64,000 nt of DNA from Vicinamibacterales bacterium (GCA_965220695.1 OZ244838.1:3395293-3459292), one strand, 5' to 3'. Shown: positions 1 through 48,802, counted from the first letter of the stretch. Numbers and translations are program-made. Notes: generated by a model from the sequence alone, not told the origin.

Positions 1-307
1 CGATCCCCCGCTCCCGCAGGACGTCCGGGGTCACTTCGGCGCCCGCCTCGAATCGCTCGGACAACGTATCGAGATTCACCACCGCGTACTCGACGCGAAA
101 TGGATTGAAGAATCCGCGTTTCGGCAGCCGCCGATGCAAGGGCATCTGTCCACCTTCGAATCCGCGCTTGTGGTGGTAGCCGGACCGAGACTTCTGCCCT
201 TTGTGACCACGCCCGGACGTCACCCCGGTACCGGAGCCGTACCCCCGTCCGACACGCTTCTTCGCGTGTTTGGCGCCCTTCGGTGGTTTGAGATCGCTGA
301 GATTCAT
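1..307 (-). CDS. rplO: 50S ribosomal protein L15, first ~102 codons (gene continues past window start)
   Basis: Hand translation from ATG at 305-307 (minus): [43 protein letters not shown]... Absent from ORF track because there is no stop in the window. Follows rpmD as in spc operons. Confidence 0.9.
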
Positions 308-312
308 CGGCG

Positions 313-516
313 TCAGCCCTCCACCTCGTTCACGCGCACCAGATGCCGGACCTTCCGTATCATGCCGCGAATGGACGGGACATCCTTGAGTTGAACGGTA
401 TGCCCGATTCGTCGAAGTCCGAGCCCCCGCACGACCTCGGCTTGACGTCTATCGAACCCGATGGTGCTCCGCACCAACGTGACGGTGACTCGGTTGCTCT
501 CCGCTCTTTCTGTCAT
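313..516 (-). CDS. rpmD: 50S ribosomal protein L30
   Basis: ORF 313..552. The last 67 aa ([20 protein letters not shown]...[10 protein letters not shown]...) look like L30. Start trimmed to ATG 516, preceded by GGAG. Confidence 0.85.
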
Positions 517-660
517 CTCCGTCTCAGTATTGTCCCGCATAGCGGGTGACAACCTGCCTCAGGCAACACCTGCGCCCCCGCCCGCATGCTCCTTCGCCGC
601 ACCTGAATCCAAGAGGCTCGTCGCCACTCTCGGTGCGACGCGGCGTGTTGCTGCGGGCGG
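517..660 (-). repeat. diverged copy of the same element filling the rpsE-rpmD spacer
   Basis: The right end ctcggtgcgacgcggcgtgttgctgcgggcgg|ctag aligns with the family right TIR and abuts the rpsE TAG. Internal catgctccttcgcc box. Left TIR not recognisable. Confidence 0.5.
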
Positions 661-1173
661 CTAGGCCGTCAAATCCTCTACATCGACACCACGCAACCGC
701 GCCACGGCGACGGGGTCCTTGAGTTCGGTCAACCCGGTGAACGTTGCGCGCACGACGTTATGCGGATTGTCAGTCCCGAGTGACTTCGTGAGGATGTTCT
801 GTATGCCCGCCGATTCCATGACGGCACGCACTGCACCCCCCGCGATGATGCCTGTACCTTCCCGAGCCGGCTTCAAGAGGACCCGTCCCGCACCGAACCG
901 GCCGACGATGGTGTGCGGAATCGTGGTTCCACTCAGCGGCACACGCACCAGCCCCTTCTTGGCGGCATCGATACCCTTCTTGATCGCCGATGGAACCTCC
1001 TTGGCCTTGCCGACGCCGAATCCCACGACTCCGTGGGTGTCACCTACCACGACCAGCGCACTGAAGCTCAAGTTCTTGCCACCCTTGACGACCTTGGTCA
1101 CCCGGTTGATCGAGACGACCGTGTCCTTGAGGTCGAACTCCCCAGCGTCGATCTTCGTTCGTATCCTATTCAT
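661..1173 (-). CDS. rpsE: 30S ribosomal protein S5
   Basis: ORF 661..1230 with [24 protein letters not shown] motif. Start set to ATG 1173 ([13 protein letters not shown]...), AGGA 8 nt upstream. The upstream ORF part lies in a repeat element. Confidence 0.9.
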
Positions 1174-1187
1174 AAGGCCGTTCCTGG

Positions 1188-1356
1188 CAGCCCGTGGCAA
1201 AAGCCCCGCTGCATTCGGTCGACGCTGCATCCCGCCGACCCGTGTTGTTCATCGGTTGCATACCGCCGGCATGGTCCCTCTTTTCGCCTTACGTTGACCG
1301 GACGCGGCATCATTACAACCAAAGCTCGGTGCAACGCGGGGTTCCACCACGGGCTG
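1188..1356 (-). mobile_element. MITE-like TIR element, near-intact copy (169 bp) between rplR stop and rpsE RBS
   Basis: Ends cagcccgtggcaaaagccccgctgcattcgg ... ctcggtgcaacgcggggttccaccacgggctg are inverted repeats. Flanked by ctgg (left) and ctag (right; its TAG is the rplR stop). Shares internal boxes with 14741-14922 and 44747-44944. Confidence 0.8.
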
Positions 1357-1731
1357 CTAGAACTTCAGTCCAGCACCGCGAGCTGCACCCGCAACTTCGC
1401 GCACACGTCCGTGATACAGAAAGCCGCCACGGTCGAACACCACGCTGGAGATCCCCTTCTCAAGCGTCCTTTCGGCCACGACACGGCCAATAACCTGTGC
1501 CCCGGCCACGTTCCCTCCACTTGCTCCAGCAGGGAGGCTCGCCTTGACACCCGGCTCGGTGCTTGATGCGGACGCCAGGGTCGTGCCGGTCGTGTCGTCA
1601 ATCACCTGGGCAGAAATGTGCGCCAGGCTGCGAAACACGGCCAATCTCGGTCGCTCGGTCGTACCCTTGACCGCCTTGCGTTGCCGCAGCGCGATCCTCA
1701 GACGTCGATCCTTCTTTGTCTTGACCTTCAT
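1357..1731 (-). CDS. rplR: 50S ribosomal protein L18
   Basis: ORF 1357..1761 with [20 protein letters not shown] motif, ends GLKF. Start set to ATG 1731 ([12 protein letters not shown]...); the track start at 1761 is a TTG. Confidence 0.9.
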
Positions 1732-1765
1732 CACACGTTCCAACCGCCACGTAAGGAGCAACTAC

Positions 1766-1910
1766 TCATGGCACCAAGCCTGCGACATTGGCCGGGCGCA
1801 GCGTCCGCGTTGCACGACATTGTTCCAAGGTCAATTGCGCCCGAAATGCTCCCTCTTCTCACCTCCCGCACCGCCGATCTCGATCCGGCGCGGGGTTCTG
1901 CCACGGTCTG
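1766..1910 (-). repeat. diverged full-length copy between rplF stop and rplR
   Basis: Right end gatctcgatccggcgcggggttctgccacggtctg|ctat abuts the rplF TAG. Internal aatgctccctcttc box. Weak left TIR tcatggcaccaagcctgcgacattgg preceded by ctac. Confidence 0.6.
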
Positions 1911-2447
1911 CTATGCCCCGGTCTTGCCCTCTTTCTTTTTCAACACCTCGCCGGTGTAACGGATGCCCTTCTGCTTGTAGGGATCCGGCTTCCGGAGACT
2001 CCGAATGTCCGCGGCAACCTGACCCACCGCCTGCCGGTCGATCCCGGTCACAACGAGATGCGTTTGGTTATCGACCGCTACGCCGATCCCGCTCGGAATC
2101 TCGAAGATGACCGGATGTGAAAAACCGAGTGCCATCGTGAGCCTCTGGCCGGCAACCTCCGCCCTGTATCCGATGCCCACGATGTCGAGCTCCTTCTTGA
2201 ACCCCTCTGACACCCCGGTCAGCGCGTTGGCAACCAGACTCCGCGCCAAGCCGTGGAACTTTCTCAGCGCACGGTCCTCGCGCTCCGGCTTCGCCTCCAG
2301 CCGGCCATCGTTCATCTCAATGACGATGCCCGGCGGAAGCGCCTGACGCAACGTGCCCTTCGGCCCCTTGACCTCAACCGCCTCAGGTGAGATCTGGACC
2401 GTGACCCCGCTCGGGATCGGCATCGGCATCTTGCCCACTCGCGACAT
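1911..2447 (-). CDS. rplF: 50S ribosomal protein L6
   Basis: ORF-track 178 aa, [19 protein letters not shown]...GIGYRA...; spc operon position. Confidence 0.95.
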
Positions 2448-2465
2448 AACTTGACTCCGTCACAC

Positions 2466-2876
2466 CTACCAGACGTTGCACAACACTTCGCCGCCGACAC
2501 CGTTCTTCACCGCATCACGTCCGGTCATCACGCCTTGCGACGTTGTGAGAATGCTCGTTCCGAGACCGCTCAACACCGGTGGCACATCGTCTCGTCCGAA
2601 ATACACGCGCCGACCGGGTCGACTGACACGCTGAATCCCCGAGATGACATTCTCGCCACGCGACCCGTATTTGAGCTGGATACGGACCATCGAACGAGCG
2701 GCCTGCCCCGTCTCGACGACGACGTCAACTACCTTGAAGGCCCGGATGTAGCCCTCGTGCTGCAGAACCCGGGCGAGTTCCATCTTTAGCCGCGATGCCG
2801 GAATATCGACGCGCTTTCGACGCGCAGATGTCGCGTTGCGGATTCTCGACAACATGTCGGAAATCGGATCAGTCAT
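2466..2876 (-). CDS. rpsH: 30S ribosomal protein S8
   Basis: ORF-track 136 aa, MTDPISDMLSRIRNA...GGEVLCNVW. Confidence 0.95.
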   Translation of the reverse strand: MTDPISDMLSRIRNATSARRKRVDIPASRLKMELARVLQHEGYIRAFKVVDVVVETGQAARSMVRIQLKYGSRGENVISGIQRVSRPGRRVYFGRDDVPPVLSGLGTSILTTSQGVMTGRDAVKNGVGGEVLCNVW

Positions 2877-2935
2877 GGCTGTTCAAGTCTTGTACTCGTC
2901 GGGGCGCCCCGCGTTTAGCGGGCGGCCCGTTCCCG

Positions 2936-3121
2936 TCACCAACTACTCTTCGTGACCCCGGCGATGTCGCCTTCAAGCGCCAACTTCCTGAAGCACAGCC
3001 GGCACAGCTCGAACTTTCGCATGAAAGCGCGCGGCCGGCCGCACAGCCGGCACCGGTTTCGGAGTCGGGTCTTGTGCTTGGGCGGTTTGCTTTCCTTGAC
3101 GATCTTCGCAGTCGTAGCCAT
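2936..3121 (-). CDS. rpsN: 30S ribosomal protein S14, short type-Z (zinc-binding) form
   Basis: Internal ATG 3121 of ORF 2936..3244 gives 61 aa [61 protein letters not shown] with CxxC...CxxC. Confidence 0.9.
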
Positions 3122-3204
3122 CACTGTCCTCGTTACCATCCCTACCAGGCTTCTCCCGGAGGGACGAGCCTGAGCGCCGTTGTGAACCCACTGGCGGCCT
3201 GGCA

Positions 3205-3250
3205 CAGCGCCGATCACGGTGCCACCCGCGGTTCCCCCCCCCACGGACTG
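3205..3250 (-). repeat. right-TIR fragment of the element after rplE stop (contains a C9/G9 run)
   Basis: gccgatcacggtgccacccgcggttcccccccccacggactg|ctag aligns with the family right TIR. Its TAG is the rplE stop. Confidence 0.5.
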
Positions 3251-3793
3251 CTAGTTCGTTCGGAACGGCATCCCCATCAACTGGAGCAGCCGCCGCCCTT
3301 CCTCGTCCGTCCTGGCAGTCGTGACCACAGAAATATTCATACCGCGCGACTTGTCGACCTTCATGTAGTCGATCTCGATGAACATCAACTGGTCACGGAG
3401 CCCGAGAGTGTAGTTCCCACGTCCGTCGAACCCTTTGGGCGACACACCCCGAAAGTCGCGCACTCGCGGAAGCGCGATCGAGATCAACCGGTCAAGGAAT
3501 TCGTACATCCGGTCTCGACGCAGCGTGACGACGGCGCCTATGGGCATGCCCTGCCGCACTTTGAATTGCGCCACCGACTTTCGCGCGCGGGTGGTCAACG
3601 GCTTCTGACCGGTGATTCGGGCCAGATCGTCGCTCCCCGCGTCAATCAGCTTCCCGTTTTGCGTCGCCTCGCCCAGCCCCATGTTCACTACGATCCGCTG
3701 AACCTTCGGCACCGCCATCACGTTGGTGTACCGAAATTCCTTCGTGAGGGCGGGCACGACCGTTTCTTGATACCGCTCTTTCAATCGGCTCAT
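3251..3793 (-). CDS. rplE: 50S ribosomal protein L5
   Basis: ORF-track 180 aa, [20 protein letters not shown]...MGMPFRTN. Confidence 0.95.
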
Positions 3794-4122
3794 CTATCGA
3801 CGACCCCATCGCATTTGCGACAAATCCGTACTTTCCGACCGTCACCGAGCAGCCGACGCCCGATCCGAGTGGTTGCGCCGCACTCGGGGCAGACGAGTTG
3901 TACGTTCGAGGCATGCAACGGCGCCTCGCGCTCGACCACCCCACCCTTCACGTTCCGGGCCGGATTGGGACGAGTGTGGCGCTTGACGAAGTTCACACCT
4001 TCGACGATCAACCGGTTCTTCCCCGGCACCAACTGCAACACACGACCACGTTTACCGCGGTCCTTGCCCGAAACCACGACGACGTCGTCGTTCTTCCGGA
4101 TCGGTGTCTGAATGCTCGACAT
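3790..4122 (-). CDS. rplX: 50S ribosomal protein L24 with C-terminal CxxC...CxxC
   Basis: ORF 3790..4134. KOW-type N-terminus ([19 protein letters not shown]) and C-terminal CPECG...CRKCDG. ATG 4122 preferred (AGGAG just upstream); GTG 4134 is the alternative. Overlaps the rplE start by 4 nt. Confidence 0.88.
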
Positions 4123-4175
4123 GACTCCTACCACTCATCGGATGACCGGCACTGCAACCTCTCGATATGCTTCGC

Positions 4176-4544
4176 TCACAGCACCTCCGGCGCAAGGGAG
4201 ACTATCTTCATGAATTTACGCTCGCGCAACTCGCGTGCGACCGGACCAAAGACACGAGTGCCGATCGGCTCACCTTGCTCGTTCACCAGCACCGCCGCAT
4301 TCCCGTCGAATCGGATATAGCTCCCGTCCCGCCGGCGATGTTCCTTGCTGGTCCGCACGATGACCGCGCGCACGACCTGCCCTTTCTTCACGGCCGACGA
4401 CGGCGCCGCCTCCTTGACCGAGGCGGTAACAAGATCCCCGAGCCGCGCATAACGTCCGGTCGCGCCACCGAGCGGATTAATCACCGCGAGCTTTCGGGCA
4501 CCGGAGTTGTCCGCCACGTCGAGAATCGATTGCATCTGGATCAT
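4176..4544 (-). CDS. rplN: 50S ribosomal protein L14
   Basis: ORF-track 122 aa, [19 protein letters not shown]... Confidence 0.95.
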
Positions 4545-4560
4545 GATCGGATCTCGCTCG

Positions 4561-4827
4561 TCAAATCGCCTGAGCTCGTTCGACTACCCGGATCACGGCC
4601 CAGCGCTTGCGTCGGCTCAGCGGACGTGTCTCGACGATGGCCACCACGTCCCCCACCTTCGCGGCATTTTCGGAGTCATGGGCCATGAACTTCGAGGTAC
4701 GTCGCTGGATCTTGCCGTAGAGTTCGTGCCGCACACGGCGTTCCACCGCCACCACGACGCTCTGATCCATCCTGTCGCTTATCACCACGCCCTGAACTTC
4801 TGCCTTGGTTCCCATATCTTTGTCCAA
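4561..4827 (-). CDS. rpsQ: 30S ribosomal protein S17
   Basis: ORF-track 88 aa, ...[29 protein letters not shown]... Confidence 0.9.
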
Positions 4828-4830
4828 CGG

Positions 4831-5055
4831 CTACGCGTCGGTGTCAGTCGCCGCGGCTCCACCGGCGATCGCGTGCTCCCGCAACAGCGTCTTTATTCGT
4901 GCCATGTCGCGCCTGCTCTCCTGCAGCTTAACTGACGCATCCTGCTGCCCCATGGAGTGCCGAAGTCGCAGCCGGAACAACTCCTCGGCCAGCTCCTGCT
5001 CCCGTTGCTCAAGGGCGGCCACGCCGAGTTCACGCAACTCCACGATCTTGGTCAT
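4831..5055 (-). CDS. rpmC: 50S ribosomal protein L29
   Basis: C-terminal 74 aa of ORF 4831..5361 ([37 protein letters not shown]...). ATG 5055 overlaps the rplP stop (ATGA). Confidence 0.88.
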
Positions 5056-5477
5056 GACGACTCGGCCTTCTCCAACCGGGTCGCGAACTTCGTATGGATC
5101 GGCAGCTTCGCCGCGGCCAGTTGCATCGCCCGCTTGGCGACCGACGCCTCCACACCTTCCATCTCGAACAAAATCCGACCAGACTTGACAACCGCCACCC
5201 ATTGTTCTGGAGATCCCTTGCCCTTGCCCATCCGCGTTTCCTGGGGCTTCTTGGTGACGGGTTTGTCCGGAAATATGCGGATCCAGATCTTGCCGCCGCG
5301 CTTGATGAAACGGGTCATTGCGACGCGCGCCGCCTCGATCTGCCGATCCGTCAACCAGCATGGCTCCATCGCACGAAGGCCGTAGTCACCGAAAGACACC
5401 GTCGAGCCACGCCATGCCTTTCCGGTCATGCGGCCCCGATGCTGTTTCCGATGTTTCACCTTTTTTGGCATCAACAT
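5052..5477 (-). CDS. rplP: 50S ribosomal protein L16
   Basis: ORF-track 141 aa, [21 protein letters not shown]... Confidence 0.95.
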
Positions 5478-5590
5478 GACGAAGTACCCTCAAGTGCGAT
5501 CATCGTCCGATCGGGTGCGGCGTCGATACCGACCACACCACCGATCTCGGTGCGACGCGGGGTTTCACCACGGGCTGCTACCACAGGCTG
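5478..5590 (-). repeat. truncated copy (stop-proximal TIR plus SD-like box) filling the rpsC-rplP spacer
   Basis: gatctcggtgcgacgcggggtttcaccacgggctg|cta, then an extra 10-nt tip ccacaggctg before the rpsC TGA. In operon sense, GAGATCGGTGGTG...TTGAGGGTACTTCGTC-ATG(rplP) matches the interior of other copies. Confidence 0.6.
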
Positions 5591-6271
5591 TCAGGTTCTG
5601 GCGCCCCGTCGCGGTGCTCGATACTCTTCATCGCGCGCCAACCGGGGCTCATGCCGATCGCCCTTGTACAACCACACCTTCACACCGATTTGCCCGTACG
5701 TGGTGTTTGCCTCCGCAAACCCGTAGTCCACATCCGCCCGCAGGGTCTGCAGCGGCAACTGACCGTGCAGATACCATTCGTTTCGCGCGATCTCCGCGCC
5801 GTTCAACCGTCCTCCGACACGGATCTTGATTCCCCGTGCGCCGAATCGTAGCGCCGATTCGACCGCCTTGCGCATTGCCCGGCGGAACGCGACCCGTTTG
5901 ACGAGCTGCAGCGCCACCGACTCGCTGATGAGCTGCGCGTCAAGTTCAGGCTTTTGAATTTCCTGAATATTGATGAAGACCTCACGCTTGGTCCGCTTTT
6001 GGATCTCGGTCTTGAGCTTGTCGACTTCAGTGCCCTTCCGCCCGATGATGATGCCCGGCCGGGATGTGCAGATGTCGATCTTCAACTTGTTCGCGGCGCG
6101 CTCGATCTCGATCTTCGATACCCCCGCGTGCGCGAACCGCTTCTTCAGATCTGCGCGCAACGCGAGATCTTCATGAAGGAGCTTCGCGTAGTCGCGGTCG
6201 GCATACCAACGTGACCGCCACGTCTTGTTGAAACCGAGCCTGAATCCGTATGGATGTACCTTCTGCCCCAT
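5591..6271 (-). CDS. rpsC: 30S ribosomal protein S3
   Basis: ORF-track 226 aa, [24 protein letters not shown]... Confidence 0.95.
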
Positions 6272-6356
6272 ATAGCCAACCCCGCGCCCGCGGGCGCTGT
6301 CCCCTACTCCAACCCCTCGGCCGTCGTCTCTGTCGCGGTCTGACTGGCGACCTTCC

Positions 6357-6770
6357 TCACTGGCGCTTCGCCGTCTCGGCCTCGCCGCTGCCTGGCAATG
6401 CCGGCGACGGGACGCGCGTTACAATCTCGGACCGCTCAGCTACCTTGACCGTGAGATGTGCAGTGCGTTTGACAATCCGAAACGCCCGCCCCATGGGTGC
6501 CGGCCGGATTCGCTTCATCGACGGCCCCTGATCGGCGAAACAATGGGACACGTACATCCGCTCGGCATCGCCGCTGGCCCCATCTTTCTGCTGCGCGTTC
6601 GCGACCGCCGAGCGCAGGACCTTCTCTATGTCCCGAGCGATGCGCTTGCGGGCGAACCGCAGGATGGACAGTGCACGGTCTACATCTTGTCCCCTGATGA
6701 GATCCATCACCAGCTTGGCCTTTTGCGCCGATGTCCGGACAAATCGGGCCGTGGCGCGCCCTTCGATCAT
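6357..6770 (-). CDS. rplV: 50S ribosomal protein L22
   Basis: ORF-track 137 aa, [27 protein letters not shown]..., with a C-terminal extension. Confidence 0.9.
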
Positions 6771-9984: not shown

Positions 9985-11179
<1,195 letters not shown>

Positions 11180-14296: not shown

Positions 14297-14740
14297 AAGC
14301 ACTCCCTGCGTCGATGACGCTACGGCATCCAGGCCGTCGGACCAGGACGCCAACGACAAATCACCCCAGGCCTGAAAGCCACCGGCTTCGCACCTGAGGC
14401 GGGTTGACCCTATTAGTGTGTGCGCGCTGTAAGGGAAATCCGTACCCCACAAACTGCCGGGTCGGTCGCTCCCAAGCTGGAAAGAGGCGAATCGCGCATC
14501 CCTGTGACCTCTTCGCGGTGCGCCGACACAGGCGCCCGGCGCACCGTCGGCCACACGGCCTCTTTCGGACGGATCGAAGTTAGATAGGGTGTCCTAACTC
14601 CGACAGAACCTTGCGAGGTTACCACGTTCGTCCTGATCCACGCAACAATTGCGCCGGCCCGGTCTTTCCGTTCTCCGATGGCCGCAACATTCCGAAACCG
14701 CACACCGGCGTCCGATTTCATTACCGCACCGATGCGCTGG

Positions 14741-14922
14741 CAGCACGCGATGAAAGCCCCGCAGCATTCGCTCGGCGCTGCATCCCGCAAAGAGCGTCGC
14801 TGGGCGTCTGATCGCCGAGGGCACACACGTCCCAATGCGCTCCCTCTTCGTGCCGTGCACTGGCCGGGCGCGACGTTATGACGAACAGATCTCGGTGCAC
14901 CGCGGGGTTTCACCACAGGCTG
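14741..14922 (-). mobile_element. MITE-like TIR element, near-intact copy (182 bp) immediately after rpoC stop
   Basis: cagcacgcgatgaaagccccgcagcattcg ... ctcggtgcaccgcggggtttcaccacaggctg. Flanks ctgg / ctat (its TAG is the rpoC stop). Internal gctgcatcccgc and gctccctcttcg boxes shared with the other copies. Confidence 0.8.
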
Positions 14923-17900
14923 CTATTCGGTCACCTCGTCTCGACCGAACGCGGCCTCCGGCTCCGCCATATAGTCCATCTCCCGTTCACTCTCGATGTC
15001 CTCTACGGTTCGCGGCGGCGGCGGCGGCTCGTCCGGCGGAATCTGCACGTGGCGGTAATAGTTGAAGCCGGTTCCGGCCGGAATCAACCGTCCCATCGTC
15101 ACGTTCTCCTTCAATCCACGGAGATGATCCACCTTGCCGGAGATGGATGCCTCGGTGAGCACCCGGGTCGTCTCCTGGAATGAGGCCGCCGAAATGAACG
15201 AGTCGGTGGACAGCGACGCCTTGGTGATGCCGAGCAGCATCGGACGGCCGGTTGCCGGACGTCCTCCTTCGGCGATGACCCGATCGTTCTCCTGCAGGAA
15301 CCGGAACCGGTCGACTTGCTCGTCGATCAGGAACTCGGTCGTGCCGACGTCCTCGATCTTCACCCACCGCATCATCTGGCGTGCCACGACCTCAATGTGC
15401 TTGTCGTTGATGGTGACGCCCTGCAGGCGATACACCTCCTGGATTTCGTTGACCAGGTAGCTTTGGAGCGCCTTCTCGCCAAGCACGCTCAGGATGTCGT
15501 GCGGGTTGCTCGGACCGTCCATCAGTTGCTCGCCGGCCCGCACCCGGTCGCCATCCTGCACATTGACGTGCACGCCGCGTGGCAGCGAATATTCCCGCGG
15601 CTCGGCGCCGTCCTCGTCCGGCACGATGATCACCTTACGCATCCCTTTGACGATGCTGCCGATCTTGACCGTGCCGTCGATCTCGCTGATGACCGCCGTT
15701 TCGCGCGGCTTCCGTGCCTCGAACAGCTCCTGGACACGCGGCAAGCCGCCCGTGATGTCCTTTGTCTTGGTCGTCTCGCGCGGAATCTTCGCCAGCACCT
15801 CGCCGGCAGTGACGTTCTGGGCGTCGGTCACCATGAGGTGGGCATGCGAAGGCATGTTGTACTTGCGCTCAAGCTTGCCGGCGGAATTGCGGATCTCCAT
15901 GGACGGCTGCTTTTTCTCGTCAGGCGAATCGACGATGATCAGCCGCGACAGCCCCGTCACCTCGTCCACCTCCTCGTGCACGGTCACGCCCTCGACGATG
16001 TCCTTGAACTTCACGACACCGGCCTTCTCCGTGATGATCGAGAACGTATAGGGATCCCACTCGACCAGCACCTGGGCCTGTTCTACCTGCTGGCCGTCAT
16101 ACACCCGCAGATGGGCGCCGTACACGACCGGGTACCGCTCGCGATCACGCCCCTTGGCGTCCTGAACCACCAGCGACCCGGTACGGTTCATGACGACCAA
16201 TGTGCCGTCCTGGGCCTTGACCCACTGGATGCCATTGAATTTGGCAGTACCGGCATGCTTCGCTTCCAGAGTCGACTGGGCCGACACCCGGGAGGCCGTT
16301 CCCCCTATGTGAAAGGTCCGCATCGTGAGCTGCGTGCCCGGTTCACCGATCGATTGCGCGGCCACAACCCCGACAGCCAACCCCAACTCGGCCAACTCGC
16401 CGGTGCCGAGGTCGCGTCCATAGCACTTGGCACATACCCCGCGTCTCGCCGCGCACGTGAGTACAGACCGGATCTTGACCCTCTCGACCCCCGAGTCCTC
16501 AATTTGCGAGGCAAGATCCTCGGTCACCAGATCGCCGGCCGACGCAATGGCCTCAGCCGTGAAGGGGTCGCTGATGTCCTCGAGCAACACGCGCCCCACG
16601 ATCCGATCACGAAGCGGTTCGATAATCTCGCCGCTCTCGACGATGGCCCGGGAATCGATCCCGTCGAGCGTACCGCAGTCAATCTCCGAGATGATGACGT
16701 CCTGGGCCACGTCGACCAGCCTGCGGGTGAGATATCCCGAGTCGGCCGTCTTCAGCGCGGTGTCCGCCAGTCCCTTCCGCGCACCGTGGGTGGAAATGAA
16801 GTACTGCAACACCGTGAGCCCTTCTCGGAAATTCGACGTGATCGGGGTCTCGATAATCTCTCCGGATGGCTTGGCCATCAACCCACGCATTCCAGCCAAT
16901 TGGCGGATCTGCTGCTTGCTTCCTCTGGCGCCAGAGTCCGCCATGATGTAGACGGCATTGAATTCCTTGCCGCCGGAATCCATCTCCTCCATCTCGTTGA
17001 ACATCTCGTCAGCCACGCGCTCGGTCACGTCCGACCAGATGGCGATAACCTTGTTGTACCGCTCCCCGTTGGTGATCGCCCCTTCCAGATACTGCTGCTC
17101 GACCCGGATCACCTCTTCACTTGCCGTCTTCACCAGTGACGCTTTCTGAGCGGGCACAATAAGGTCGTCGATACCGATCGACAGACCCGACCGGGTGGCG
17201 TAACCGAACCCGAGCTGTTTCAGGCCGTCCAGCATCTCGACCGTCTTGTCGACGCCGTGCCGCAGATAGCAGTACTGCACCAGTTGGCCCAGCCCCTTCT
17301 TCTTGAGCAACCCGTTGACATAGGGCAACTCCGGCGGCAGCGCGCTGTTGAATATCGCACGACCCACAGTGGTATCGATGACCTTCTGCTCGATCTCCAA
17401 CACCTCGGTGCGAAGCACATCCTGGTCGTCTCTGGATGCGGTCAGATCCATCAATCCGCCGCTGATCCGAAGGCGGATGGGGGTCAGGGTCTCCACTTCT
17501 CCGGCGGCCACCGCCAACATCACATCCTCGACGTTGCCGAAGACCCGACCAGCTCCCTTGGCGTTGTCCTTTTGCTTGGTCAGGTAGTAGCACCCCAGCA
17601 CGATGTCCTGCGAGGGGGTGGTAATTGGGGCGCCGTTCGCCGGTGACAGAATGTTCTTCGACGACTTCATCAACACCGACGCCTCGATTTGCGCCTCCGG
17701 CGCCAGTGGGATATGAACCGCCATCTGGTCACCGTCAAAATCGGCGTTGAACGCCGTACAGACGAGCGGGTGAATCCGAATCGCCTTCCCCTCGACGAGC
17801 ACGGGCTCGAACGCCTGAATCCCGAGACGATGCAGCGTGGGCGCGCGGTTCAAGAGCACCGGATGCTCGCGAATCACCTCTTCCAGTACGTCCCAGACTT

Positions 17901-27062: not shown

Positions 27063-28257
<1,195 letters not shown>

Positions 28258-28351
28258 TGTCCGCTCACTCTGACGTCAATGCACCTGTTTCGGTGACTGG
28301 CCGTTCTCCGTCACCCGCCTCACCACCCCAGAGGATCTGGGCCTTGAACGC

Positions 28352-44746: not shown

Positions 44747-44944
44747 CAGCCCGTGGTGAAAGCCCCACTGCATTCGATCCCCGCTGAATTCTGCGCTTCC
44801 CCGCGGAATTCTGCTGTTTCACGCTGCATCCCGCGTGGCGGCGTTGCTCCTCGGTCACAAATGCCCCAATTTGCTCCCTCGTCGCGCCTTGCCACGCGGG
44901 CGCAGCGCCAATCTCGGTGCAACGCGGGGTTTCACCACGGGCTG
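44747..44944 (-). mobile_element. MITE-like TIR element, best-preserved copy (198 bp), flanked by CTAG on both sides
   Basis: The terminal 15 nt are perfect inverted repeats (cagcccgtggtgaaa / tttcaccacgggctg). ctag at 44743-44746 and 44945-44948 (the latter holds the purH TAG stop). Carries two extra tandem 20-mers at 44779-44818. Confidence 0.85.
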
Positions 44945-46561
44945 CTAGTGCCTGAAGTGCCGGCGCCCGGTGAACACCATGGCGATGCCGTGCTCATTCG
45001 CGGCGTTGATCACCTCCTCGTCGCGAACGGAGCCACCGGGCTGAACAACCGCTTTGGCGCCAGCCGAGGCAATGGCATCGAGGCCGTCCCGGAACGGAAA
45101 AAACGCGTCCGACGCGGCGGCCGTACCGGACAGGCCGGTTGTCGCCTTCATGACAGCCACATTGACTGCGTCGACCCGACTCATCTGACCGGCACCGATC
45201 GCAGCCAGCCTGTCCGCGGTGGCAAAGACAATCGCATTCGACTTGACGTGCGCGCAGACCCGCCACGCCATGCGCAACGCCGCCCACTCCTCGCCGGTCG
45301 GCTGCCGGGTGGTGACGACCCGGCGATCATCTCCGGCGGCAGTCTGGCCCACGCGGCCCCACGCAGACGCCGCTTCGGTCACCCGATCGTAGCGCTGGAC
45401 GAGAATCGCCCCCAGGATGGAGCGCACTTCCCGGAACATCGGCAGATCCGACGCGCCGTTCCGGCAGTCCGCCAGGACCACGCGCAGGTTCTTCTTCGTC
45501 GTGAACACCGCACGGGCTTCCACGTCGGCGTCTGGTGCGACTACCGCTTCGATGAAGGTCGACGTGATCTCCCTGGCCGTGTCACGGTCGATCGGGCGAT
45601 TCAGACCTACGATGCCGCCAAACGCCGACAGCGGATCAACCTCGCGCGCGGCCACGTAAGCCTCGCGCAGCGACGGCGCGGTGGCCACTCCGCATGGATT
45701 CATGTGCTTCACTACAACCGCTGCCGGCTCTTCGAACTCGCTGATCAGCCTCGCCGCCGCGTCGAGATCCAGCAGATTCGTGAACGAGAGCTCCTTCCCC
45801 TGCACGACCTCGGCGCCGCCGAACCCCCGCGGGCCGGCGCCATACATGGCCGCAATCTGGTGCGGATTCTCGCCATACCGCAAGCGGCGTTGCCGCACCG
45901 CTTCCAGAACCAGCGTGTCGGGGACCAGCTCATCGGAGGACGAGGTCCCGCGTGAGAAGACACCGTCGTTGACCTCAACCTCGGACAGGGCCCTCGAAAT
46001 CATGGCGTCGTAGGACCGGGTGTGCGAGAACGCCTTGATCGCCAGCGACAACCGGAACTCGGCAGTGGGTCCTCCGGCCCGGTCGAGTTGTTCCATCGTG
46101 CTGCGATAGTCCGCCGGCTCAACCACCACAAGCACATGCTGGAAGTTCTTGGCGGCGGCGCGGACGAGCGTCGGTCCTCCGATGTCAATCTCTTCGACAA
46201 GCGCCTCGACAGTCGTGTCGGGATCGGCAGCGGCCTGCGCGAACGGGTAGAGATTGACGACGACGATGTCGATCGGCTCGATGCCACGGGCTCCGATTGC
46301 CTCCAGATCGCCCTGGCGATCGCGGCGCGCGAGAATGCCGCCGTGTACCGCCGGGTGCAAGGTCTTCACCCTCCCATCCAACATCTCAGGAAACCCGGTG
46401 ACAGAGGACACGGGGGTCACCGGGAGCCCTGCCCGGGCCAGGATTCGCGCGGTGCCACCGGTCGACACGAGTTCGTATCCGCGGGCCTCCAACCCTCGCG
46501 CGAATTCGACGAGATCCGATTTGTCCGACACACTCAACAATGCTCGCATCCGCTCGCTCAC
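44945..46561 (-). CDS. purH: bifunctional AICAR transformylase / IMP cyclohydrolase
   Basis: ORF-track 538 aa, ...[18 protein letters not shown]...GGTA...[12 protein letters not shown]..., ends [12 protein letters not shown] 46561 preceded by GGGAGGAG. Confidence 0.95.
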
Positions 46562-47089: not shown

Positions 47090-47274
47090 AACGTTCCCTC
47101 CCGGTCGCTCCATTCCATTCCCGACTTCACGCGCGTGCACGCCGGCGCCGACTCATGATGCGGCCCACGGTGGCATCCCACCACGGCGCGGTCGGCTGTC
47201 ACATGGGAGACCGACCCGCGGCACCCCGCACGGTTCTGCCAGTTCGACCGGCGCTCGAGAGGCCGGCTCACCGG

Positions 47275-47330
47275 CAGCCCGCGGCAGCAGCCCCACTGCA
47301 TGCGCCCAGTGCTGCGCGCGGTTTTATCAC
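47275..47330 (-). repeat. left-TIR fragment upstream of selA
   Basis: cagcccgcggcagcagccccactgcatgcg aligns with cagcccgtggtgaaagccccactgcattcg. Downstream part diverged. Confidence 0.4.
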
Positions 47331-47416
47331 ATCCCCGGTCGCCGGCGTGGTGATATCCTGACAACCCGCGCTGGGGCGAGGCGTCCGTCGACCACGCCGC
47401 GCCACCGGACCTGTTC

Positions 47417-48802
47417 ATGACCACGCCGCGCGTTCTCCCGTCAATCGACCGCCTGCGTCAACGACCCGCGGTGCGCGCCCTTGAGGCAGAGTACGGACCC
47501 AACGCGGTCGTCGAGGCGCTACGGTACGTAGCCGACGGACTACGCAACGAATTGAACAGCAAGCACCCGCCGTCCATCAGGAATGGAGAGGAAGCCGCTG
47601 TCGCGTTGGAGCAGCGCACGGCAGAACGGCTGGCGGACGACTTCGCACCCTCGTTGGTGCCGGTGATCAACGCCACAGGCGTCATCGTCCACACGAATCT
47701 CGGGCGGGCGCCACTGGCGACCGCGGCCGTCCGGCGGGTCACCCGGTTGGCCGCCGGGTACTCGAATCTCGAGTATGACCTGGAGATTGGAACGCGCGGA
47801 TCCCGCGACAGACACGCCGAACACCTGCTCACCCGGATCACCACCGCGCCGGCCGCCGTCGTGGTCAACAACAACGCCGCAGCGGTGCTGATCGTGCTTT
47901 CCGCCCTGGCGAACGGCCGGGAAGTCATCGTCTCACGCGGCGAACTCGTTGAAATCGGCGGCGGGTTCCGAATTCCTGACGTCATGCGGCAATCTGGCGC
48001 CGATGTCCGGGAAGTCGGGACGACCAACAAGACTCGAGCGGCGGACTATGCGGCGGCCATCAGCAACCGCAGCGCCATGATCCTGCGAGTCCATCCGTCG
48101 AACTTCCGTATCCAGGGGTTCACGGAACGCCCCCGGCTCGATGAGCTCACGGCACTCGGCCGACAGTTCGATCTGCCAGTCGTCGAGGATCTCGGCAGCG
48201 GCAACCTGCTCGACGCCCAGGCCGCCGGGCTACTGGGAGAACCCTCGGCCGCGGCCAGTCTTGCGGCGGGGGTGACAGTCTGCTGCTTCAGCGGCGACAA
48301 GCTCCTTGGCGGGCCTCAGGCGGGGATACTCGTTGGCGAAACGGACGCCATCAGCCGGATCCGCGCCCACCCACTGATGCGCGCCGTCCGGATCGACAAG
48401 ATGACCTGCGCCGCGCTCGAGGCCACGCTGCTGGAGTACGCACGTGGACGGGCCGCCGAGACCATCCCTGTGGTCAGGATGATTGCCGCGAGTGCAGCCG
48501 GTATTGGAACACGCGCCGCCGCGTTGGCGGAGGGACTCGACGGGCACAGGTCATTCGAGGCCGACCTCGTCGATGGTGTCTCGACCGTCGGGGGTGGGGG
48601 CGCCCCGGGGTCGGCATTACCGACGTGTCTCATCCGGCTGACGCCCCGAAACGGATCCGCGGACGCTCTGGAGCGACGCCTGCGACAGTTGCGCCCGCCC
48701 GTAATCGCCCGGATCGAGAACGACCGGGTGCTGCTCGATCTGCGTACCGTCGCGCCCGATCAGGACGAACAGCTTGCTACCGCGCTGACCACCCTTGCCT
48801 GA
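47417..48802 (+). CDS. selA: L-seryl-tRNA(Sec) selenium transferase
   Basis: ORF-track 461 aa. LPSIDRLRQ N-terminus and FSGDKLLGGPQAGILVG PLP-Lys motif. Confidence 0.88.
   Translation: MTTPRVLPSIDRLRQRPAVRALEAEYGPNAVVEALRYVADGLRNELNSKHPPSIRNGEEAAVALEQRTAERLADDFAPSLVPVINATGVIVHTNLGRAPLATAAVRRVTRLAAGYSNLEYDLEIGTRGSRDRHAEHLLTRITTAPAAVVVNNNAAAVLIVLSALANGREVIVSRGELVEIGGGFRIPDVMRQSGADVREVGTTNKTRAADYAAAISNRSAMILRVHPSNFRIQGFTERPRLDELTALGRQFDLPVVEDLGSGNLLDAQAAGLLGEPSAAASLAAGVTVCCFSGDKLLGGPQAGILVGETDAISRIRAHPLMRAVRIDKMTCAALEATLLEYARGRAAETIPVVRMIAASAAGIGTRAAALAEGLDGHRSFEADLVDGVSTVGGGGAPGSALPTCLIRLTPRNGSADALERRLRQLRPPVIARIENDRVLLDLRTVAPDQDEQLATALTTLA

Follow-up and report, generated by a model that had tools for sequence, protein, structure and literature searches.

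The str/S10/spc genes of a soil acidobacterium contain five long spacers that are probably the remains of separate insertions of one miniature inverted-repeat transposable element (MITE). The element would take CTAG as its target, including the CTAG formed where a C precedes a TAG stop codon, and most of its operon copies are likely tolerated relics that are drifting. The genes lie on the minus strand of a 64,000-nt stretch from Vicinamibacterales bacterium (GCA_965220695.1 OZ244838.1:3395293-3459292), called here the window, which has 62% G+C and a negative GC skew. CTAG-specific landing on TAG stops, which changes neither of the adjoining proteins, offers a mechanical reason why a mobile element can riddle a highly conserved and compact operon. 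A first-pass annotation of the window had proposed that the S10/spc operon is broken up by five element-derived spacers; it missed that the operon is on the minus strand and that every copy begins exactly at a TAG. Loci from other genomes carry L numbers below.

Gene starts were set manually by homology, and the junction lengths, which follow from those starts, reproduce the long gaps of that annotation (Table 1); outside the gaps listed there, operon junctions are overlaps or gaps of at most 59 nt. A repeat finder placed the five long spacers and the copies after rpoC and after purH in one family. In local alignments against the family, scored against shuffled sequences, z reached 20.6 for rpsC–rplP, 12.5 for rplF–rplR, 36.4 for rplR–rpsE, 11.4 for rpsE–rpmD, and 4.7–7.2 for rplE–rpsN; the same alignments gave z of about 0 for the control spacers rplV–rpsC, rplN–rplX, and rpsN–rpsH. 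A covariance model built from 28 copies, all from other genomes, matched four of the five spacers: rplR–rpsE (91.2 bits, E 2e-15), rpsE–rpmD (32.9 bits, E 2e-4) and, less strongly, rplF–rplR (23.6 bits, E 0.01) and rpsC–rplP (16.4 bits, E 0.2). The rplE–rpsN spacer was not matched by the model and is recognizable only through its 5' end and its orthologues. The proposal that each of the five holds a copy or fragment of a single family is borne out, with z values of 4.7–36 against about 0 in the controls. Only rplR–rpsE retains a complete copy with both terminal repeats; those in rplE–rpsN and rplF–rplR are full-length yet degenerate, and those in rpsC–rplP and rpsE–rpmD are truncated or reduced.

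All seven window copies are on the minus strand, and each starts directly after a TAG. In six cases this is the stop codon of the upstream gene (rplE, rplF, rplR, rpsE, rpoC, and purH). The exception is rpsC, where a TGA stop is followed by a 10-nt relic, CAGCCTGTGG, and then by the TAG. This relic is the footprint of an older insertion, because relatives have CTAG-CAGCCGATGG-TA at the same place.

The element itself is non-coding and about 160–200 nt long, with a canonical form of 158 nt and variants of 169–217 nt; no conserved open reading frame (ORF) was found in it. The distribution of lengths has a sharp maximum at 158 nt; there are subfamilies near 60, 177, 197, and 217 nt and variants from about 55 to 260 nt. 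The terminal inverted repeats are 16–22 nt long, beginning CAGCCCGTGGTGAAA on the left and ending CCACGGGCTG on the right; in complete copies the left end CAGCCCGTGGTGAAACCCCGC pairs with the inverted-repeat right end GCGGGGCTTTTGCCACGGGCTG, and CTAG or a one-base variant stands on both sides. The 28 copies, taken from different genomes, have a mean identity of 89%, and their alignment folds along its whole length into one hairpin; compensatory double changes are seen at 21 of its 55 pairs. A pattern scan for the left end, with one genome per species, found more than 107 loci among the matches listed, nearly all in metagenome-assembled genomes (MAGs) of Vicinamibacterales; at least 12 of the listed loci are on one chromosome, OZ253576.1. 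Element termini, and some canonical full copies, also occur in Palauibacter/Longimicrobiales of the Gemmatimonadota (L004, L038, L047, L050, L060, L073, and L077), in Bryobacterales (L022, L028, L032, L033, and L062), and in a MAG labelled 'Gammaproteobacteria' (L042), which implies either horizontal spread of the insertion sequence (IS) and MITE or mis-binned contigs. L008 (5726-6201) holds a tandem array of three to four copies in head-to-tail order, one every 162 nt, with CTGC in place of CTAG between them. Many canonical copies also carry a sigma-70-like CTGACA-16-CATATT at about consensus positions 50–77 (e.g. L065 4025-4182 and L037 1627-1784). It is present in 16 of 39 distinct canonical copies in the left-to-right direction, never on the other strand, and in 0.7% of shuffles. 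The motif lies at the hairpin tip, where conservation is high and pairing poor, and is absent from the operon copies of the window.

The most direct evidence for mobility comes from the operons of relatives, which were obtained through S5 homologues; those we call close have 94–99% protein identity. L189 and L190 encode identical S5 proteins, yet they differ at rpsC–rplP. In L190 the site is empty (GGGT-CTAG-CAGCCGATGG, spacer of 44 nt), whereas in L189 it reads GGGT-CTAG-[197-nt element]-CTAG-CAGCCGATGG (245 nt), and L191 matches L189. The CTAG target here includes the rpsC stop codon. L190 and L189/L191 are thus an empty/filled pair with a target-site duplication. The window has a different, truncated insertion at this junction, located at a second TAG 10 nt downstream of the CTAG used in L189 and L191, so that among close relatives the junction is empty, filled, or differently filled. 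Across the family, no other flank is as frequent as CTAG, which borders 48 of 136 left ends and 35 of 96 right ends; most of the rest are one-base variants of it.

The remaining four junctions (rplE–rpsN, rplF–rplR, rplR–rpsE, and rpsE–rpmD) are occupied in all close relatives, and in more distant relatives they are compact or differently occupied. L193 has 9 nt at rplE–rpsN and 14 nt at rplR–rpsE, and L109 and L124 have 9–36 nt; over these three loci, junctions of 9–36 nt stand where the window has 129–183 nt. The comparison with close relatives that the first-pass annotation had suggested yields four common insertions and one variable one. The colonization of the five junctions is real and was not observed in the more distant relatives, in which the matching junctions measure 9–14 nt; the empty/filled pair, the target-site duplication, and the partner IS described below sustain the view that the spacers derive from a mobile element. 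At rplR–rpsE, L189 combines an interior of the 197-nt type with a right end common to L190 and L191, whose interior is of the 169-nt type, which indicates a probable replacement by recombination or gene conversion between copies. Distant relatives also have other, unrelated long spacers that begin at C-TAG stops: rpsQ–rplN (150 nt), rplR–rpsE (176 nt), and rplN–rplX (145 nt) in L194/L195, and rpsQ–rplN (157 nt) in L193, the rpsQ–rplN spacers of L193 and L194 being alike. Additional families of elements that share the target may account for them.

A partner IS was found by searching for pairs of element ends 0.4–5 kb apart. At L058 6013-7477, termini like those of the small element bound a 1465-bp unit that encodes a 456-amino acid protein, in which two Pfam domains, DUF772 (E 9.5e-18) and DDE_Tnp_1 (E 1.5e-5), score above their gathering thresholds. 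The best NCBIfam match of this protein is IS1182 (E 1e-45), followed by IS5 models. It has more than 8000 homologues at E <1e-30; plasmid homologues of 48–53% identity are annotated as transposase, one being listed as 'IS5 family transposase'. Six further copies were fetched (L196–L201); with L058 they span 1465–1484 bp and encode transposases of 454–466 amino acids. All six have CTAG...CTAG flanks and the same 16–18-nt ends as the small element, and in L197–L201 an identical IS occupies five separate sites. The small element has only its termini and target in common with the IS, to which its interior is unrelated. A tblastn search with the transposase found no further IS copy in the window or in the first 107 loci. 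In L058 (5872-7477) the complete IS lies about 140 nt beyond a left end of the small element at 5872; apparently the right part of a small-element copy was interrupted or replaced by the IS. Two candidates were rejected: L093 873-2360, a membrane-protein gene between two end-like motifs, and the window ORF 47417-48802, which is bracketed by end-like motifs and proved to be selA rather than an autonomous element.

Taken together, the element has the features by which MITEs are recognized: it is short and non-coding, has terminal inverted repeats, duplicates its target, exists in many copies, and has termini in common with a transposase-coding IS. Literature searches on MITEs in Acidobacteria, on IS1182 with CTAG, and on MITEs in ribosomal-protein operons found no description of the family. 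The element and the IS are a previously undescribed pair of a well-known kind, abundant in one of the major soil-bacterial groups.

Why, then, do the copies start at TAG? The answer that we favor is that the target is CTAG, which is depleted in the window and often survives as C plus a TAG stop. Composition predicts 213 CTAG in the window and a Markov estimate predicts 36, and 17 were observed (about 12-fold below the former); 5–6 of the 17 are at stop codons. Occupancy follows the base before the stop: 4 of 5 C-TAG stops carry a copy, compared with 2 of 5 A-TAG and 0 of 9 G-TAG stops, and one of the occupied A-TAG stops, that of rplF, is C-TAG in relatives. These counts lead us to infer that, within compact operons, a CTAG is harmless mainly where it forms part of a stop codon. 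Insertion at a C-TAG stop would regenerate the TAG, leave the protein unchanged, and keep the next Shine-Dalgarno sequence and start codon intact. The motifs GAGGGTACTTCGTC-ATG before rplP and AGGACA..G-ATG before rpsN are identical in relatives with empty sites. For the family as a whole, genes were called crudely, as stop-to-stop ORFs filtered by a test of G+C at third codon positions (GC3), which placed 22 elements inside calls. The 5' ends from this caller are unreliable, and orientation was therefore counted only where an element exactly abuts a stop codon; such a stop, from a gene that reads into the element, borders 25 of 117 left ends and 10 of 81 right ends. In crude gene calls for the window, TAG is an unusually common stop for a genome of 62% G+C (18 of 49 calls).

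These observations can be assembled into a sequence of events. First, the IS transposase would presumably mobilize the small element. Second, the element would integrate into CTAG, which ends up on both of its sides; the insertion itself is what the L190 and L189 sites record. Third, copies would drift at about the neutral rate and lose their hairpin, leaving most operon copies as tolerated relics. Fourth, genes downstream of an insertion would presumably be translated from their own ribosome-binding sites and not by termination-reinitiation. Such coupling is reported to vanish beyond about 20 nt (PMC10666635), and it has therefore probably been lost at the five junctions. The first-pass annotation had left open whether the insertions are neutral, in that they preserve read-through and coupling, or co-opted. 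The neutral alternative fits better, because spacer divergence equals the synonymous rate and old copies have lost the hairpin; preserved coupling is unlikely across gaps longer than about 20 nt, and the insertions instead spare the stop codon and the ribosome-binding site of the next gene.

The case for decay can be put in numbers. Spacers of the window and its relatives are 72–83% identical, and four-fold degenerate sites of the flanking genes are 76.5% identical. Young copies fold with z of -5 to -7 against shuffles, while the rpsC–rplP, rplE–rpsN, and rplF–rplR copies give z of about 0, the latter two in all four genomes. The rplR–rpsE hairpin has z of -3.3 to -3.6 in the window and is lost in the orthologues from L190 (-0.8) and L191 (+0.5). 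A scan of positions 1-6500 found no sigma-70 promoter-like or terminator-like site in the five spacers, its two terminator-like matches falling inside rpsH and rplE. Rfam models, run over window positions 1-30000 with matches accepted up to E 1, gave tRNAs and, elsewhere, a single sub-threshold sRNA match, but nothing else. Divergence at the synonymous rate, loss of the hairpin, and the lack of regulatory signals in these scans favor the reading of the operon copies as tolerated, decaying relics.

Several results weigh against this reading, in whole or in part. Those that touch its details are three. The assignment of the rplE–rpsN spacer depends on a modest similarity. The duplication could be of all 4 bp of CTAG or of the TA inside it, the data being compatible with both. 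Every NCBIfam IS model scores the transposase under its curated cutoff (156 bits versus 270 for IS1182 and 83 versus 140 for IS5_4), so the IS may be a divergent member or a separate subgroup. Those that touch the neutrality of the copies are also the arguments for co-option, that is, for RNA elements in the polycistronic mRNA that serve as RNase III/E sites, exonuclease barriers, or self-folding inserts that bridge from the stop codon to the next ribosome-binding site. All nine independent insertions in ribosomal-protein, rpoC, and purH contexts, including a canonical copy right after rpsK in L193, are sense-oriented (p of about 0.004 against 50:50 and about 0.03 against a background of about 2:1), which pure neutrality does not predict. 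Young copies are very stable full-length hairpins, and the sense strand of intact copies is more stable than the antisense by 7–10 kcal/mol. Within the hairpin, G-U pairs outnumber A-C mismatches (64 versus 11 alignment cells and 24 versus 9 positions), and this excess, with the covariation, hints at a constraint on one strand; the asymmetry is strong for common variants but among rare ones (16 versus 9) falls short of significance. At the base of the stem in the rplR–rpsE fold, moreover, the Shine-Dalgarno sequence of rpsE is paired with the last codon. Sense bias, G-U excess, sense-strand stability, and this pairing hint at selection on the RNA of young copies. In addition, the four insertions kept in all close relatives have hardly changed in length at about 23% neutral divergence, and unrelated hairpin spacers occur at ribosomal-protein junctions of many other Acidobacteriota.

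Co-option nevertheless seems unlikely to us as an account of the operon copies. Three of the five fold no better than shuffles, the rplR–rpsE hairpin is gone from two of three orthologues, the spacers diverge at the synonymous rate, and the state of the rpsC–rplP junction varies among close relatives. Elsewhere the bias in orientation is slight (about 2:1); between co-directional genes the element lies either way round, operon-like contexts included (7 versus 4). Finally, the dependence of occupancy on the base before TAG is accounted for by target choice and not by function.

Two other explanations fare worse. It is very improbable that the copies are REP/REPIN palindromes moved as single-stranded hairpins by a RAYT (Y1/HUH) transposase, with no DDE-type IS as partner. 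A full-length hairpin with compensatory changes and strand-asymmetric tolerance of G-T would be expected for recognition of single-stranded DNA, and the conserved head tetranucleotide is reminiscent of GTAG-tagged REPs (PMC3733652). But the head is CTAG and not GTAG or CGTC (CTAG 48 versus GTAG 5), a filled site has a clean CTAG duplication, and the termini are those of an IS with a DDE transposase that is flanked likewise; no RAYT gene was met in the loci, in which no systematic search for one was made. We rejected this possibility on the head sequence and the partner transposase. That the spacers are native, lineage-specific regulatory leaders (ribosomal-protein binding sites) that merely resemble one another is scarcely credible and already contradicted by the distribution of the element, since the same sequence follows rpoC and purH and recurs, among the matches listed, at over 100 unrelated loci in many genomes, the junctions are compact in slightly more distant relatives, presence differs between near-identical genomes, and no Rfam family matches, even if novel leaders are conceivable in Acidobacteria, which have no known RNAs of the E. 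coli regulatory type (PMC3616713). The L4 and S8 autogenous control that the first-pass annotation took as applicable background does not transfer here: its control structures are reported only from Gammaproteobacteria (PMC3616713).

Table 1. Spacer lengths at selected operon junctions, and copies and fragments of the element in the window.
Feature	Position (nt)	Strand	Length and remarks
rplV–rpsC gap			85 nt
rpsC–rplP gap			113 nt
rplE–rpsN gap			129 nt
rplF–rplR gap			179 nt
rplR–rpsE gap			183 nt
rpsE–rpmD gap			144 nt; 120 nt with the upstream ATG of a public gene call
rpsC stop TGA (5591-5593), relic half terminal repeat CAGCCTGTGG (5581-5590), TAG (5578-5580)	5578..5593	-
Truncated copy, rpsC–rplP spacer	5492..5577	-	Left terminal repeat and ~60 nt of interior; right end unrecognizable; preceded by TAG 5578-5580; repeat-finder reference copy 5536-5580
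Degenerate full-length copy, rplE–rpsN	3145..3250	-	106 nt; between rplE stop TAG 3251-3253 and TAG 3142-3144; 64% over left 45 nt (repeat finder); L189–L191 orthologues nearer consensus
Degenerate copy, rplF–rplR	1765..1910	-	146 nt; between rplF stop TAG 1911-1913 (context CTAG in relatives) and TAG 1762-1764
Complete copy, rplR–rpsE	1188..1356	-	169 nt; both terminal inverted repeats; rplR stop (C)TAG 1357-1359; CCAG 1184-1187, a mutated duplicate; long hairpin, -89.5 kcal/mol, z = -3.6
Reduced copy, rpsE–rpmD	578..660	-	83-nt hairpin; after rpsE stop TAG 661-663; fold z = -3.2
Complete copy after rpoC stop TAG 14923-14925	14741..14922	-	182 nt; right flank CCAG 14737-14740; 52.7 bits, E 3.5e-8
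Young complete copy directly after purH stop	44747..44944	-	198 nt; CTAG on both sides (44945-44948, 44743-46); 95.7 bits; -125 kcal/mol, z = -5.8
Solo fragment like element right end, upstream of selA	47271..47336	-	69%; 10.1 bits, E 3.4, weak

Some features of individual copies deserve mention. In the rpsE–rpmD spacer, no clear family similarity was found in the other ~60 nt (517-577). The copy after rpoC lies within a 626-nt rpoC–rpsL spacer; apart from the 182-nt element this spacer has about 440 nt more (14297-14740), presumably the str promoter and leader region. A look-up of exact RpsL matches, made for this copy in relatives, returned the same species only. The right arm of the rplR–rpsE element contains an ATG (1174-1230) in frame with rpsE, which would extend that ORF by 19 codons to 189 amino acids. 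This ATG seems incidental; no conserved ORF for coupling was seen. Public records of relatives call S5 at 189–208 amino acids (P0018, P0021, P0022, P0024, and P0052), and these long calls are probably the same start-site artefact caused by an element ATG; for annotation, the lesson is that elements of this family cause mis-called gene starts. Apart from the elements, the window has two tuf genes (9985-11178 and 27063-28268) that are 100% identical over their 3' 300 nt, with further identical blocks at the 17078-nt offset. This pattern suggests concerted evolution or gene conversion.

Hairpins of another kind are frequent in the ribosomal-protein operons of the phylum. In 80 metagenomic acidobacterial operons there are 171 ribosomal-protein junction spacers of 60–200 nt, and 80 of the 171 fold with z < -3. 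In 55 of those 80 the arms are tandem heptamers paired with their complement, and 12 contigs have at least three such junctions. Heptamer hairpins of 70–150 nt, such as (CAGTTTT)x4 ... (CTGAAAA)x4, reach from the stop codon to before the Shine-Dalgarno sequence in S10/spc junctions (L155, L131, L132, L133, L136, L137, L141, L156, L158, L110, L138, and L172). An Rfam scan of these relatives gave nothing above threshold and only sub-threshold miRNA-hairpin noise, and a literature search on heptamer hairpins found no description of the window family. The heptamer hairpins are a phenomenon separate from the MITE, and intercistronic hairpins are common in the ribosomal-protein operons of this phylum. 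One could go further and propose that self-folding inserts of either kind are a selected, phylum-wide feature of Acidobacteriota, acting as a bridge from stop codon to ribosome-binding site or as a processing or stability module. We consider this quite improbable. If it were true, the inserts would be the MITE in Vicinamibacterales and junction-specific heptamer hairpins in other lineages, persistence in highly expressed operons would have moulded the covarying, sense-biased hairpin of the MITE, and CTGACA-16-CATATT could supply an internal promoter. The unrelated hairpin spacers found elsewhere in Acidobacteriota suggest that the architecture of these operons deserves experimental attention. 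The young, old, and empty junctions in near-identical genomes form a natural series for the effects of 150–200-nt hairpins on transcription, stability, and translation.

Among known systems, the closest parallel is with MITEs partnered by IS5/IS1182-type elements. IS5 duplicates 4 bp at YTAR/CTAG-like targets. Like those MITEs, the present element is short and non-coding, has 16–18-nt termini identical to those of an IS whose transposase combines DUF772 and DDE_Tnp_1, duplicates a CTAG target, and occurs in many copies with presence/absence polymorphism. Unlike them, it did not arise from the IS by simple deletion, given an interior of unrelated sequence, and the whole element is a covarying hairpin; its host range here is Vicinamibacterales with some Bryobacterales and Gemmatimonadota MAGs.

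A second parallel is with the MIRUs of Mycobacterium tuberculosis, 40–100-bp intergenic operon repeats whose small ORFs overlap the flanking stop and start codons. There too a repeat stands between co-transcribed genes and begins at the upstream stop codon. MIRUs, however, are tandem direct repeats that lack terminal inverted repeats and, to our knowledge, have no IS partner, whereas the element here is a single hairpin with a target duplication. Third, the Correia elements of Neisseria, the ERIC/IRU repeats of Enterobacteria, and REP/BIME are intergenic hairpin repeats that can act as RNase III/E substrates, stabilizers of upstream mRNA, or promoter carriers. The resemblance lies in imperfect palindromes of 100–200 nt that are co-transcribed with flanking genes, and the CTGACA-16-CATATT of the canonical consensus adds to it; the sequence, the target (CTAG here, not TA), and the transposase differ, and the old operon copies here have lost theirs as hairpins. 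Finally, the STRR heptamers of heterocystous cyanobacteria and the TAACTGA repeats of Beggiatoaceae (PMC4679880) resemble the heptamer hairpin spacers of other Acidobacteriota and not the window family. In the acidobacterial spacers, by contrast, heptamer runs and their complements form the two arms of a hairpin, and the heptamer differs from junction to junction.

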